This document shows, piece after piece, positions 9,025-14,964 of a stretch of 64,000 bases of DNA. The stretch comes from Saprospira grandis. GTDB lineage: Bacteria > Bacteroidota > Bacteroidia > Chitinophagales > Saprospiraceae. The stretch spans positions 1,372,241-1,436,240 of the forward strand of contig NZ_CP110854.1 in the NCBI RefSeq assembly GCF_027594745.1, written 5' to 3'. Position 1 is the stretch's first letter. Every line of letters starts with the position of its first letter. The notes under the pieces are model-generated. The model was given only the letters and a program-made list of their open reading frames with translations, had not been told where the DNA came from and ran no database searches. Made by a program: the position numbers and the translations under genes.

Positions 9025-12000
9025 TTAGTTCAAATCATTTTCCATTAGGCCGCCTCCGTTGAGGCCTGCTCCTAGGTCCATTTGGACCTCTAACTGGTTA
9101 ATTAGGCTTTCGCCAGCTTTAAGACTTAGGCTAGCAAAATCGACACTAATATCTCGGCTATTGCCGCCATCTTCTACGGGCACCGAAAACTGTCCAGCTT
9201 GCAACTTCACCTCTCGGCTACTTTCTAAGTACTCGAAAGAATTGGAGCTAAACTTCAGGTCGGCAATTTGGAACTCCACGGCTGCTTGGTGGAGCCAATT
9301 GGCTTGACTATCGGAGGTATAGAAGGCGCCATTTCCTTGAATTTGGAGTTGGCTATCTTGGTAGCTATAGCTTCCTTGGAGGGTAAATTCATCATTGGCC
9401 ATGCTAAGATAATCGAGTAGGGCTTTGGGTTCGGAGCTACCGCCCTTAGTAAAGCCGAGTTGGTCCTCGATACCTTCATAAACCATATTGAGTTCCTCGA
9501 AGGCTTCAAAATGTTCCTCTTGGGCCATTTCGAGTTCCTCCTGCAATTCGTCTAATTCTGCTCGGATCTCTTCTAATTCGCTTTGTTCCTCTGCGGACAA
9601 TTGATTTTCTCGGGCTTCTAGCCCTTCTTTGGCAATTGTTTTCTCCTTAATTTGATCTTGGAGATCTAGGGTTGCATCTTCTGCAGAATAGAAGAGCTCT
9701 TGATCTTGGGCCACCACATCGGTGTACTCAAAAAGCAGGTCTAGTACCGGATCGTATTGGTTGAGTAAAGAAAGGCTATTCACATCTCCATCTTCAATCA
9801 GACCTGCTTCGAGTTGCTCATGTATTTTTTCTACTGCGCTATATTCGGCATTACCAGAGCCCACGCCATCTACGCCTGTATTTCCGGCTAGGACCTCTTG
9901 AATTCCGGCGGTATATCCGGCTTGGAAGCCCTCCTTATATTGTTGGAAAAAGGGTTGGATTTGGCTTTGGTAAAGCGCTTGAAAATTAGCTTTTAGTTGT
10001 TTGCGAATAGATTTATCGAGACTACGTTTGCCCTCCTTATCTAGTTCGGCAATAAAATTATCGTATTCTGTTTGTAGGGCGAGAACTTGGTCCTCGATAT
10101 AATCATTTTGGTTTTGGCCTGGGGCCAAAGCGGTAGGATGTTCTTGACCAAAAATGCGTTCAAGGTCTTTATAGGCATTAGTCACCTCTGTGGCTAAGGC
10201 TTTATCCTCTTCTGAGGCAGAAGTTTGTTGTAAAGCCTCGGACTTCTCTTTTTTGATGAGTTCATTTAACGCCTTTCTCATCTCGCCAACCAGGCGGTAG
10301 CGGCCCTTCTCCATTTCGGCAGAAGAGGCATTTGGGCTTTTATAAGAGTCATCGATGAGGAGTTCACGAGCTTTTTCATAGCCTAGAACATACTTATCTT
10401 GGCCAACATTGCCAGCGGCGGCTAGCAATTGCTTTTGATAATCGGTTGCTTCGGCTAGGGCGGCTCCTTCCTCGGCGGTATCTGAATTATTGATCCCTTC
10501 TACCAGACCTTTTCTGGCTCCGCGGATATAGCCTTCTTTAAAGTTTTGCAGTTGTTTTTCCCATTCGGCGATTGCGCTGCGCAAGAACTGTTTATCTTCA
10601 TTAGACAGCTGTTCTGAGAGTAAGCCTTCGGCCTGTTTGCTCAATTCTGCGGTTAGTTCCTGATAATTTTCTAGGGGCGTAGCATTTTGGTCAAAGCTAA
10701 GAAGGCTTTGGGCTTGGCCTTCAATTTGGGCCAACAACTCTGGGATTTGGCTATCCTCTAATTCTTCGGCGGCAGCTTGGCCCGACTCTTTAGCGGCCTG
10801 AATAATTTGGGGTACAAATGCTTTCAGGTCTTCGAGCATAGTAGGCACACCATTGGCTTCAAACTCTCCTTGGAGGTTGGCCATTTGGCTCGGGCTAGCT
10901 TGGCGTTGATCTCGGCCATAGGCATAGCCTTTTTCATAGGCGCTGGCATAGGCATCGCCTAGGGTACTGCGTAGCTCCTCTATTCTTTGGTCAAGGACAG
11001 AGCCTGACTTTTTGGTTTCTCCGTTAATTGTTTGGTTCAGGCCATCTTGGCGACCATTTGTACGGCCGAGGTGGAACTGTCCTTCTAATTCAGAAGAATA
11101 AGACAAAGTAGGATCTTTGGGCGTATAGCTTAGTTCCTCAAAATTATCGCCTTCTTTTTCGTTGGTGGCGGCTAGATAGCCTTGTTGATAACCTAAATTA
11201 TAGGCTTCTCCTTTATCAAAAAGATATTGGTAACCTTCTAAGAAGCCCTCTTGAGTGGGGGCATCTAGTTCTGCGGCGACCGTTTCTTTGGTGGCTTCAA
11301 AGCTCTCGCCGTTCAGCAAGGCCTTTTTATGTGCTTCAATATCTTTTCGGGCAGTTTCTTGGCCCAGCTGATAGCCTCTATCGTGGCCACCGCCTTGCAT
11401 TTTTCGGCTCACCTCTTCCGTAGAGATCAGGCCAGCTTGCAGCATTTGGGCCATCTTATAGCCTTCTGCGCGACCAGCATTAAAGGCGGCAAGCGTATTC
11501 TTATCGGCTTGGGCATATTCTGCATCCTTGCCAGCGGCAGCGGCCAGCGCCTCTTCTTGTCCTGCTAGCGGAGGATAGCCCTCCAAAGACTGATAGCCAA
11601 AGAGCAGACCATCTTGGCGGGCTTTTTCCGCATTATCTTCTTTGGCCACCTTGGCGGTAGCATCTTCTAATGCTTGCTGGTAGCCTTTTTCGATTTCGGT
11701 CATTTGGCGATCCACCTCTGCTTGGGGATCTTCGTTACTACCGCCTTTTTTAGTATTGGCGGCTGTTTTTGGGGCCTGCTCTTCTAGCTCTTTGCGTTTT
11801 TTGGCCAATGCAGCCTGCATTTTGGCGGCTTTTTGGGCTAAAATCTCATTGGCTTGAGCTTTAGCGGCCTCTGCAGTTTGGGCCTCGGGAGCTTCCTCAT
11901 CGCCATAAAGCTTTAAGCTTCCGCTCAGTTCTTCAGTTCGTTGGCCACTGGCTATTTTGGCAATATAGAGCCAGTTATCATAATCGAGATCATAGCCTTC

Positions 12001-14964: not shown

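Follow-up and report, generated by a model that had tools for sequence, protein, structure and literature searches.

The T6SS subtype iv (T6SSiv) of the Saprospiraceae, the classical "rhapidosome," is a contractile machine ~0.4 µm in length, several times that of AlgoCIS, whose particle measures ~120 nm. T6SSiv was recently shown to kill prey through puncture. In Aureispira, the machine measures 420 ± 8 nm (bioRxiv 10.1101/2024.01.29.577165). It works, its cis14 gene is drawn within its own T6SSiv cluster, and its closest relatives include the Anabaena thylakoid-anchored CIS and AlgoCIS (Lien et al.).

The tape measures of contractile injection systems (CIS; Cis14, Alg14, and Afp14, Pfam family PF19268 CIS_TMP) and of long-tailed phages lack a signal peptide and combine a helical center with a distinct C-terminal domain. 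Each tape-measure residue of a CIS corresponds to 0.2156 to 0.229 nm of particle, the central region of eCIS tape measures is mainly helical, and related phage tape measures bind the baseplate by their C-terminal end (bioRxiv 10.64898/2026.05.27.728243). Periodic aromatic markers are present in approximately 5% of phage tape measures (PMC5099701). The eCIS lumen cargo proteins (Cgo1/Cgo2, Pdp1/Pnf, and Mif1/Pne1) are cytoplasmic proteins of large size that lie inside the tube and whose N-terminal region is disordered and specific to each system, and known CIS cargo reaches 1228 aa (bioRxiv 10.64898/2026.05.27.728243). Close packing of soluble helices through glycine repeats is described for other proteins. 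In FliH and YscL, the pattern AxxxG(xxxG)mxxxA places a Gly at each fourth residue, with a strong preference for Tyr or Phe immediately after the Gly; these repeats, which include GYxxGFxxG-type strings, are believed to bring helices into tight contact, and the authors of the FliH work found long repeats of this type in no solved structure (PMC2674601). In the Yae1-Lto1 adaptor proteins, deca-GX3 repeats in a soluble helix serve to pair two helices tightly (PMC4523923). Here, we compare these systems with a giant acidic protein encoded by Saprospira grandis.

RESULTS

The giant gene and its flanks

Within the window, by which we mean the whole 64-kb stretch of DNA that was analyzed, the ORF list and translation gave one ORF on the minus strand with an ATG start, the single reading frame that an earlier note on this DNA had described. 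The product (here called the giant) has 1979 aa, a mass of 216.5 kDa, a pI of 4.64, and a net charge of about −136, and its composition (E, 13.1%; A, 13.1%; G, 8.7%; K, 8.2%; Q, 8.0%) agrees with the earlier description of a strongly acidic, Glu/Lys/Ala/Gln-rich protein. Its N terminus (MSKGNQNSSQENQRIYEQ...) is hydrophilic and, as had also been noted, lacks a signal peptide; the translation contains no transmembrane segment. The gene and its flanks comprise the following features.

8966..9004, no strand: bidirectional intrinsic terminator (17-bp stem, of which 7 pairs are GC, between an A-run and a T-run)
9025..14964, minus strand: complete gene for the acidic giant (ORF list, translation, orthologues, and dN/dS of 0.08)
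14965..15290, no strand: upstream intergenic region of the giant, with a 60%-GC dispersed repeat at ~15120-15290 (sequence)
15291..15797, plus strand: divergent gene for a 168-aa membrane protein (syntenic in the nearest non-Saprospira relatives, 45% identity by BLASTP)

The stem-loop lies between the stop codon of the giant and the convergent recJ gene (7271-8965; domains DHH, DHHA1, and RecJ_OB). Since it is flanked by an A-run and a T-run between two convergent genes, we read it as a bidirectional terminator, and the proposal that recJ and the giant share one was thus correct. On its other side, the giant has an intergenic region of its own, beyond which the neighbor is divergent, and it is therefore monocistronic; further copies of the 60%-GC repeat occur elsewhere in the window. 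The 168-aa neighbor matches positions 1402-1899 of L007 and 2243-2740 of L010 by BLASTP (L numbers designate the loci compared) and is a conserved syntenic neighbor of the giant.

Saprospira sp. CCB-QB6 and S. grandis DSM 2844 carry intact, syntenic orthologues with 87% and 94% identity, respectively, and a further protein is 99% identical to the giant. Among the Saprospira orthologues, dN/dS is 0.08 at a dS of ~1 with only 9 gap columns, values that point to strong purifying selection. Because the ORF is intact in these two other Saprospira genomes and strongly constrained, we ruled out that it is an artefact of the kind that frameshifts in orthologous loci would betray, a concern raised in the earlier note.

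A small family without matches to described proteins

An exhaustive HMMER scan of 1.84 billion representatives returned 8 clusters, including that of the query, all of them colinear, ~2000 aa long, and from Saprospiraceae-like genomes. Full-length members range from 1957 to 2183 aa, with a mutual identity of 21 to 28% among non-Saprospira loci, and the core that follows a conserved GLGKKV motif keeps a length of 1720 ± 50 aa despite ~25% identity. The whole giant had no Pfam match at an E value of ≤1, and searches of Pfam, NCBIfam, and PHROGs with the whole protein and with its C-terminal 199 aa assigned it to no family. Against PDB sequences, the giant and its C-terminal profile gave coiled-coil noise at most, and a Foldseek comparison of the model of aa 596-1015 with the PDB and BFVD gave nothing at an E value of ≤0.001; BFVD matches with tape-measure names were discarded (E > 1, TM < 0.2). 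HmpF and the HK97 capsid surfaced in the family searches as weak noise (E = 0.01 to 0.2). No phage tail family in PHROGs was matched, tblastn with aa 1180-1979 found no match in 50,697 phage records, and a pattern scan of metagenomes found no locus of the family. The earlier failure to assign a family held up in these searches. As judged from these searches, the family is tiny, carries no annotation of any kind, and was previously undescribed, as the earlier note had suspected.

The giant showed no sequence or profile similarity to PF19268 CIS_TMP or to a CIS_TMP member from a canonical cluster; when the family alignment of the C-terminal part was compared with that PF19268 protein by hhalign, the probability was 0.1%. 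That canonical CIS_TMP protein is devoid of GxxxG motifs, and we accordingly rejected such motifs as a general tape-measure trait. Pfam and NCBIfam detected no DUF4157, toxin, or enzyme domain in the giant and no Por_Secre_tail or TIGR CTD match. A T9SS cargo was ruled out because the giant has no signal peptide.

Predicted helical core and aromatic-glycine motifs

The giant can be divided into the following regions.

14026..14964, minus strand: N-terminal region, aa 1-313 (composition windows, gappy alignment, and dN/dS)
9865..13947, minus strand: helical core, ~aa 340-1700, with ~17 clusters of (aromatic-x-x-Gly/Ala)n (motifs, shuffles, invariant columns, and AlphaFold2)
12475..13977, minus strand: internal repeats of ~90 aa, aa 330-830 (chunk-versus-whole BLASTP, E values down to 5e-8)
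9475..9720, minus strand: long acidic helical hairpin (coiled coil), ~aa 1749-1830 (AlphaFold2 blocks, pLDDT of 79-91)
9028..9417, minus strand: C-terminal conserved domain, ~aa 1850-1979, predicted to be β-rich (family alignments; AlphaFold2 strands at low confidence)

The first ~50 residues are moderately conserved and are followed by an acidic low-complexity stretch up to GLGKKV. This N-terminal region has many gaps and a length of 240 to 360 aa across the family alignment, as well as the highest dN/dS in the giant (0.08 to 0.14), and disorder is probably restricted to its ~310 residues. For aa 596-1015, AlphaFold2 (pLDDT of 70) predicted 16 helices of 17 to 35 aa joined by turns, and we describe this all-helical part of the core as a predicted array of helical hairpins. 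The C-terminal ~130 residues stand apart in composition, show conservation across the family (motifs G-x-G...LGDL-x-F...VP...Q-x-E-Q-Q-L), and are the sole part with predicted β-strands, in a C-terminal model that is poor (pLDDT of 53). Overall, confidence in the structure models of the giant is moderate or poor. The bulk of the protein had been called coiled-coil-like; this description suits the one confidently predicted long hairpin at ~aa 1749-1830, whereas elsewhere the models show short helices joined by turns. A distinct folded C terminus had likewise been proposed, and its composition and conservation agree with this, over ~130 residues rather than ~170, with β-strands at low confidence.

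All of the aromatic motifs quoted earlier are present, and they follow a 4-residue register, aromatic-x-x-[G/A]-aromatic-x-x-[G/A/S], which occurs 23 times, compared with 0.7 ± 0.8 expected (2000 shuffles, z = 27). In shuffled sequences, GxxxGxxxG is expected 1.3 times and GxxxG 14.9 times; the giant has 16 and 44, respectively, with aromatics enriched at G+1 (33) and G−3 (41). The motifs do not recur every 40 to 60 residues as had been thought; they form ~17 clusters at irregular spacings of ~18 to 150 residues, in runs of 2 to 4 units over ~1400 residues, and the longest GX3 runs have 3 to 4 units. Each ~90-aa repeat carries K-x-[FY]-x-x-[GA]-[FY][FY]-x-[GA]-[FY]-N-x-x-Y. The lowest dN/dS in the giant (0.03 to 0.04) falls in the motif-rich part at aa 307-756, and 19 of the 28 columns invariant in the family alignment are glycines, mostly at i and i+4; some Tyr columns are invariant, too. 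Collectively, these data identify the aromatic-glycine motifs as motifs for helix packing, of the GxxxG type described for FliH, and not as stickers in a disordered chain. The earlier picture of a disordered scaffold is refuted by the motif-rich part, which is the most constrained and is predicted to consist entirely of helical hairpins, and a condensate or cytoskeletal role drew no support from any result.

Like FliH, the giant has GxxxG repeats with Tyr or Phe at position x1. FliH and YscL, however, have one long run near the N terminus, whereas the giant distributes its short runs over most of its length, matches neither Pfam FliH nor a PDB entry, and has no ATPase-regulator C-terminal domain and no flagellar or T3SS context. 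Its GX3 repeats also resemble those of Yae1-Lto1, but its runs fall far below ten units, it has no Yae1_N Pfam match, and it is unrelated in size, taxon, and context. The aromatic markers of phage tape measures have a period of 11 or 18 residues, in contrast to the period of 4 with Gly seen here.

Linkage of the giant to Cis7 and a small membrane protein

At all nine non-Saprospira loci, the giant gene adjoins a gene for a membrane-anchored protein of 97 to 106 aa, and at eight of them (L002, L003, L005, L007, L008, L009, L010, and L012) a Cis7 homologue is present as well. The search among relatives for contractile-injection-system neighbors, which the earlier note had proposed, thus found one. 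These homologues (251 to 307 aa; PF19266 CIS_tube plus LysM) match solved Cis7 chains, 7b5h_AK from the thylakoid-anchored CIS of Anabaena (E = 7e-26) and 7aeb_M from AlgoCIS (E = 7e-23), and, more weakly, Afp7, and on these matches we take the tube-like neighbor to be a true Cis7, the tube-initiator/LysM hub. The gene for the ~100-aa protein always lies directly upstream of the Cis7 gene, with a gap of 12 to 30 bp, and one to three paralogous copies of such small signal/TM proteins surround the giant; an assignment as Cis6/DUF5908 was ruled out for lack of similarity. The giant and the small protein, with Cis7 at every locus save one, recur in at least four unrelated flanking contexts and in both orientations. 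Because the linkage is repeated across contexts, inherited synteny alone is not a ready explanation, and comparison of the loci indicates that the giant is genetically linked to Cis7 and the small protein across divergent relatives.

In Saprospira (the window, L001, and L004), recJ and housekeeping genes flank a solitary giant whose upstream synteny is kept, and neither Cis7 nor the small protein has a homologue in the 64 kb of the window or in L001 and L004, orthologous loci of 26 kb. In L010, the genes upstream follow the order seen in the window (thiolase-DUF4293-165 aa-giant), and the trio of giant, small protein, and Cis7 is therefore probably the older arrangement. None of the giant loci holds a full CIS cluster, and no CIS gene occurs within the window, where a block at 45-58 kb was rejected as a CIS cluster on its contents (transporters and arsenic-resistance-like genes). 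A Cis7 of the giant-linked subfamily also occurs by itself, at L016, and in the L012 lineage the giant is split into 1286- and 752-aa parts with another gene between them. In an Aureispira MAG, the small-protein and Cis7 pair adjoins a different giant, of 1928 aa, which is β-rich and has a similar acidic N terminus. We ruled it out as a homologue of the whole giant; a single unit of ~75 residues resembles the C-terminal domain, with a weak similarity between that domain and its repeat units that exceeds shuffled sequences. The exhaustive HMMER scan returned no protein traceable to Aureispira.

DISCUSSION

Tentatively, we favor the view that the giant is a tube-lumen protein of the predatory T6SSiv and most likely its tape measure. 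From the evidence below, we infer its physical tie to the injection system, its location in the lumen, and its function as a ruler. Adjacency to Cis7 in the relatives favors the "packaged cargo" or injection-system end of the roles listed in the earlier note, which also included a cytoskeletal or scaffold protein and a condensate-forming protein. The giant would be a cytoplasmic product that forms part of a machine serving contact-dependent predation, and it would act together with the baseplate ring of Cis7, the tube initiator. Inside the inner tube, its conserved C-terminal domain would attach to the hub (Cis7/spike), its ~1700-residue helical core would span the lumen during tube and sheath polymerization, and its N-terminal end would mark the point at which growth is halted by the cap. 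Through the (aromatic-x-x-Gly)n motifs, neighboring helices may pack unusually closely, within a chain or between the chains of a lumenal bundle, to give a thin rod.

With the published CIS coefficient, 1979 aa predict a length of 427 to 453 nm, which agrees with the measured 420 nm in number only, as the measured genus is Aureispira, of the same family, and not Saprospira. The ruler-like conserved length of the family, the absence of a signal peptide, the predicted helical center, and the distinct, conserved C-terminal domain all count in favor of a tape measure, and the giant's relatives share with CIS tape measures the adjacency to a tube-initiator/LysM hub gene. The giant nevertheless resembles neither PF19268 CIS_TMP nor phage tape-measure families at a level that sequence or profile comparison detects. 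It is also 4 to 5 times longer than short-eCIS tape measures (the PF19268 protein of the canonical cluster L013 has 356 aa), has a strongly acidic tail, and in the window lies outside a CIS cluster. Its isolation in Saprospira, the absence of a full cluster at any giant locus, and the solitary Cis7 at L016 count against the tape measure as well, as does the moderate or poor confidence of the structure models, and the split gene is awkward for a single-chain ruler. The ~310-aa acidic, probably disordered N terminus resembles the "system-specific disordered NTD" of lumen cargo, which also speaks against a ruler. Moreover, since Aureispira has a working 420-nm T6SSiv and no traceable giant, the giant cannot be the universal T6SSiv ruler of the family. 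A broader possibility, which we hold with more doubt, is that the giant, the ~100-aa membrane-anchored protein, and Cis7 form a new T6SSiv module with an interchangeable giant. The giant would be of the α-helical GxxxG type in most lineages and of a β-repeat type of the same size in Aureispira; the helical type, built of glycine-zipper helical hairpins, would found a ruler or lumen-filling class that is not homologous to those known.

Some of these observations would suit other roles. The giant could have nothing to do with the injection system and be a structural or scaffold protein of the cytoplasm, such as an envelope-associated or cell-shape element of these filamentous gliding bacteria, for which adjacency to Cis7 has no direct physical meaning. 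The Saprospira gene is monocistronic amid housekeeping genes yet strongly constrained, no giant locus has a full CIS cluster, Cis7 occurs without the giant (L016) and the giant without Cis7 (the window), and GxxxG-aromatic helices are generic dimerization devices (PMC2674601). We consider this unlikely: the giant and the small protein (with Cis7 at all loci but one) persist together across at least four contexts at ~25% identity, the giant is restricted to a lineage known for T6SSiv, and a 3% conservation of length is unusual among coiled-coil scaffolds. In the role of a non-lumenal T6SSiv accessory, the giant would act with the small membrane protein in the cytoplasmic anchoring densities or the envelope-spanning assembly observed in Aureispira. 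The trans-envelope complex, inner-membrane anchors, and antenna of T6SSiv have no assigned genes in the literature (Lien et al.), and the membrane-anchored gene keeps its place 12 to 30 bp upstream of Cis7. However, the giant has no transmembrane segment, signal peptide, or structural match, the small protein is absent from the window, L001, and L004, and this conjecture, drawn from gene position alone, strikes us as very improbable.

The giant might also be a lumen cargo or effector of the same injection system. Its acidic N terminus would be a loading sequence, and its helical body would enter the tube by threading or unfolding; its dedicated carrier would be the Cis7 paralogue, and the small membrane protein an accessory or immunity partner, much as in the auxiliary effector modules of other T6SSs. 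Linkage to Cis7 favors such a cargo, and ~310 low-complexity residues with a conserved extreme N terminus fit a plan of disordered NTD and variable C-terminal domain. Paralogy of the small signal/TM proteins is a frequent trait of immunity genes, the Aureispira pair with its different giant looks like partner swapping, and the gene split at L012 would be tolerable. What makes a cargo role quite unlikely, in our view, is that the giant has no DUF4157, toxin, enzyme, or other effector domain and, being very acidic and helical, no obvious activity. Colinearity and conserved length extend over the entire 1700-aa core and are not confined to an end domain; the linkage is to the hub gene, whereas cargo genes sit at the cargo end of a cluster; and Saprospira keeps a constrained giant although the 64-kb window and the 26-kb L001 and L004 loci contain no putative gene for a carrier or for immunity.

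Returning to the tape-measure reading, a tunable ruler of such length would interest engineers of injection systems for larger cargo. The giant is, in addition, an unusually clear natural case of GxxxG-aromatic packing of soluble helices, with the motif clustered ~17 times per chain, for a class previously discussed chiefly for FliH and Yae1/Lto1. The antenna, envelope complex, anchors, and effectors of T6SSiv are without assigned genes, and the giant is a concrete candidate for its ruler or lumen content. If the broader reading is true, the module would explain how a contractile machine of 0.4 µm is measured or loaded in the Saprospiraceae.

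The giant gene is intact and under constraint

The ORF list and translation bear out the earlier note's description of a single minus-strand ORF for an acidic protein (here the giant) without a signal peptide, and the terminator that it proposed to be shared with recJ has a good candidate in a stem-loop on the 3' side:

9025..14964, - strand: giant ORF, ATG start, 1979 codons
8966-9004: 17-bp stem-loop with an A-run and a T-run on its flanks, between the giant ORF 3' side and convergent recJ

On the upstream side, 326 bp of intergenic sequence separate the giant from a divergent gene for a 168-aa membrane protein. 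Given the stem-loop before convergent recJ at one end and this spacer and divergent neighbor at the other, the gene is monocistronic. Its product (216.5 kDa, pI 4.64, net charge of about -136) has a hydrophilic N terminus.

In Saprospira sp. CCB-QB6, the syntenic and intact orthologue (87% identity; 1976 aa) bears no annotation beyond hypothetical protein PPO43_05125, and the orthologue in S. grandis DSM 2844, also intact, is 94% identical. In comparison with CCB-QB6, dS was ~1.05 and dN was 0.084 (ratio, 0.08); no 150-codon block exceeded a ratio of 0.14, the motif-rich block at aa 307-756 had a ratio of 0.03-0.04, and the alignment contained only nine gap columns. A disordered spacer would not behave in this way. 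Collectively, these comparisons indicate that the ORF is a real gene and not an artefact, a concern raised at the outset.

Upstream of the giant gene is a dispersed repeat (15120-15290) with a GC content of 60%, versus 48% for the window as a whole. It looks REP/MITE-like and has at least 11 more partial copies in the window, 86-96% identical across 35-100 bp; the copies checked fell between listed ORFs or at ORF ends. The window also holds an arsenic-resistance-like block and, apart from it, two adjacent ArsR-family genes.

Dispersed-repeat partial copies: 6899-6949, 18542-18589, 20466-20565, 24066-24111, 25076-25110, 29888-29927, 33504-33598, 39036-39074, 41431-41465, 45261-45302, 48920-48988
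49020-52367, - strand: ArsP permease, SBF/ACR3-type transporter, LMW phosphatase-like protein, DUF6428
4360-5049, + strand: two adjacent ArsR-family HTH genes

The aromatic-glycine motifs resemble helix-packing repeats

All of the aromatic-glycine motifs quoted in the earlier note are present in the giant; they form ~17 irregularly spaced clusters, however, rather than recurring every 40-60 residues. Their common register is aromatic-x-x-[G/A]-aromatic-x-x-[G/A/S] (23 occurrences versus 0.7 ± 0.8 in shuffles). For GxxxGxxxG, the count is 16 where 1.3 would be expected, and aromatics peak at G+1 and G-3. Internal repeats of ~90 residues each occupy aa 330-830. The family alignment has three zones: a gap-rich, poorly aligning N-terminal stretch of 240-360 residues; a colinear core of 1720 ± 50 residues from the GLGKKV motif on (seven full-length members); and a conserved C-terminal domain. 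Glycine accounts for 19 of the 28 invariant columns and tyrosine for 4, mostly in i, i+4 pairs.

Motifs of this type have been reported for FliH by Trost and Moore, who found glycine at every fourth residue, tyrosine or phenylalanine strongly favored directly after it, and GYxxGFxxG over-represented, and who proposed that these repeats mediate close helix-helix packing (PMC2674601). Because of this match, we read the giant's motifs as probable glycine-zipper packing sites within a folded helical protein. An AlphaFold2 model of aa 596-1015 built from nine family sequences (mean pLDDT, 70; pTM, 0.39) consists of 16 helices, each 17-35 residues long, with short turns between them; this region is thus predicted to be an array of helical hairpins, not one long coiled coil. 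The C-terminal 380 residues were poorly modeled (pLDDT, 53): one long hairpin at aa ~1749-1830 was predicted with confidence, and the strands placed in the last 130 residues with low confidence. The coiled-coil-like character first suggested for the bulk of the protein therefore suits that long hairpin but not the modeled repeat region. The proposal of stickers in a disordered chain fits poorly with the low dN/dS of the motif-rich block, the helical model, and the FliH-type motifs.

The giant belongs to a rare, undescribed family

As the earlier note had anticipated, no known family could be assigned: searches of Pfam (E ≤ 1), NCBIfam, PHROGs, PDB sequences (queried with both the protein and a profile), phage genomes (tblastn), and, with the aa 596-1015 model and Foldseek, PDB and BFVD returned no family or noise only. 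The giant did not match PF19268 CIS_TMP, FliH, Yae1_N, DUF4157, or T9SS sorting domains, and by sequence it belongs with neither CIS_TMP, phage tape measures, FliH, Yae1/Lto1, contractile injection system (CIS) cargo of the eCIS type, nor T9SS substrates. Among 1.84 billion cluster representatives, exhaustive phmmer with aa 780-1979 recovered eight clusters including the query's own, all colinear across the full query, with complete members of 1957-2179 aa and none named. Across 185,579 scanned species genomes, the giant turned up only in S. grandis, in a "Saprospira sp." MAG from Lake Mendota, and in one MAG of an uncultured Bacteroidetes. Queried with the C-terminal 380 residues, a word-indexed protein search gave zero matches, missing even a 99%-identical database protein (P0001) found with the full-length query; its negatives for the distal C-terminal portions of long proteins are not to be trusted.

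Outside Saprospira, the giant gene travels with a tube-initiator gene

Genomic context was recovered for nine non-Saprospira giant loci (L002, L003, L005, L006, L007, L008, L009, L010, and L012). Beside the giant, all nine encode a 97-119-aa protein, present in one to three copies, with a hydrophobic N-terminal segment (transmembrane or signal) and a small conserved domain (GKIMM...VWDTETGKSK...QLPSSPIY; alignment A3). This family has no Pfam or PDB match and is undescribed; Cis6/DUF5908 was considered and rejected for lack of similarity. The gene is often multicopy, one copy always lying directly upstream of the tube-LysM gene described below.

Genes for the small protein
L002: 9363-9662; 16004-16306
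L003: 8501-8800
L005: 923-1216; 7837-8190; 8838-9137
L006: 4663-4965; 5462-5818
L007: 9045-9338
L008: 2580-2885; 3062-3382
L009: 7428-7721; 8789-9091
L010: 9688-9981
L011 (Aureispira sp. MAG): 358-651
L012: 1190-1495; 9684-9986

Eight of the nine loci also encode a 251-307-aa protein with PF19266 CIS_tube followed by LysM; the exception, L006, has only a weak fragment match (hmmsearch E = 0.00076, 16.2 bits). The tube-LysM protein matches Cis7 from the thylakoid-anchored CIS of Anabaena (7b5h_AK; E = 7e-26) and the AlgoCIS LysM chain (7aeb_M; E = 7e-23), with a weaker match to Afp7, and on this similarity we identify it as a true Cis7, which forms the tube-initiator ring in the baseplate hub. 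The search for injection-system genes near the giant in relatives was thus rewarded. Lien et al. count these systems with the nearest relatives of the T6SS subtype iv (T6SSiv) of Aureispira, and equate the old Saprospira "rhapidosomes" with T6SSiv.

The commonest order is giant, small protein, Cis7 on one strand, with a gap of 12-30 bp between the latter two; the genes are oriented differently in L005 and L012. Flanking genes vary among the loci (thiolase/DUF4293, TPR/methyltransferase, YebC/CcbP, or NADAR), and identity between the giants is only 21-28%; the three genes thus travel together. On the 1.3-Mb L010 contig, the order is thiolase, DUF4293, 165-aa membrane protein, giant, small protein, and Cis7. 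The first four follow the window's order, and the 165-aa protein is 45% identical to its window counterpart. Profile searches found neither the small protein nor Cis7 in the window or in two other Saprospira loci; given the shared upstream order, Saprospira appears to have lost or relocated these two genes.

In four freshwater-clade loci, the giant gene adjoins a gene for a conserved 187-210-aa protein (PNHFHFLI motif) with a weak IS200-like Y1 transposase match (RAYT-like), which may be tied to rearrangements there:

L003: 8968-9531, - strand
L006: 6021-6653, + strand
L009: 2-400, - strand
L012: 1660-2223, - strand

A possible role in the tube lumen

We tentatively propose, at short of even confidence, that the giant works with the hub of a contractile machine, in the tube lumen, most likely as a tape measure. 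This proposal draws on linkage to the hub gene, architecture, and length. The giant lacks a signal peptide, has a helical centre, and carries a C-terminal domain that is both conserved and distinct; the central region of eCIS rulers is mainly helical, and related phage rulers bind the baseplate by their C termini (AlgoCIS study, bioRxiv 10.64898/2026.05.27.728243). Family length is conserved to 3% at ~25% identity. At 0.2156 (across CIS) to 0.229 (Alg14) nm per residue (same study), 1979 residues predict a particle of 427-453 nm, a numerical fit to the extended T6SSiv of another genus, Aureispira (420 ± 8 nm; bioRxiv 10.1101/2024.01.29.577165). The phage coefficient of 0.15 nm per residue (PMC5099701) would give 297 nm. 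The glycine-zipper motifs would pack helices into a thin bundle fitting a narrow lumen.

Several observations hold confidence in a tape measure down. We found no homology to known rulers, and the canonical CIS_TMP protein, unlike the giant, lacks GxxxG motifs. A complete CIS cluster was present at none of the giant loci. At L016 (3577-4362, + strand), a Cis7 homologue of the subfamily found beside the giants has only housekeeping neighbors (RlpA-like, MscS, VWA), and CIS genes therefore appear scattered in these genomes. In Aureispira, cis14 (tape measure) is drawn within its own T6SS cluster (bioRxiv 10.1101/2024.01.29.577165; Lien et al.), and none of the proteins from the exhaustive phmmer search could be traced to that genus. 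The L012 giant gene (2473-9319, - strand) is split into frames of 1286 and 752 residues, which cover profile positions 1-1206 and 1211-1907 and are separated by a DUF6175 gene. A metagenome protein of independent origin (P0009) stops at the split point.

The Aureispira sp. MAG locus has a different giant ~1.1 kb from its small-protein and Cis7 pair:

L011 2690-8476, + strand: 1928-aa protein

This protein matches the helical giants in size and is Gly/Ser/Thr/Asn-rich, with beta-repeats, an acidic N terminus, and no signal peptide. Only a ~75-residue unit resembles the giant family's C-terminal domain, weakly (hmmsearch, 23.6 bits versus ≤5.4 in 200 shuffles; hhalign probability, only 4.7%), in a comparison chosen after the fact. 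One hub gene with different giant partners looks more like cargo modules, and the first ~310 giant residues could be a disordered N-terminal loading region such as cargo proteins have (AlgoCIS study, bioRxiv 10.64898/2026.05.27.728243); among the alternatives, we judge a scaffold independent of any CIS somewhat unlikely, a lumen cargo or effector unlikely, and a non-lumenal accessory improbable. The closest functional counterparts of the giant are the tape measures of CIS and of phages, but its sequence places it in neither group. The giant family is undescribed and, if tied to T6SSiv as its neighborhood indicates, would represent a new variant of a known component and not a new kind of system.
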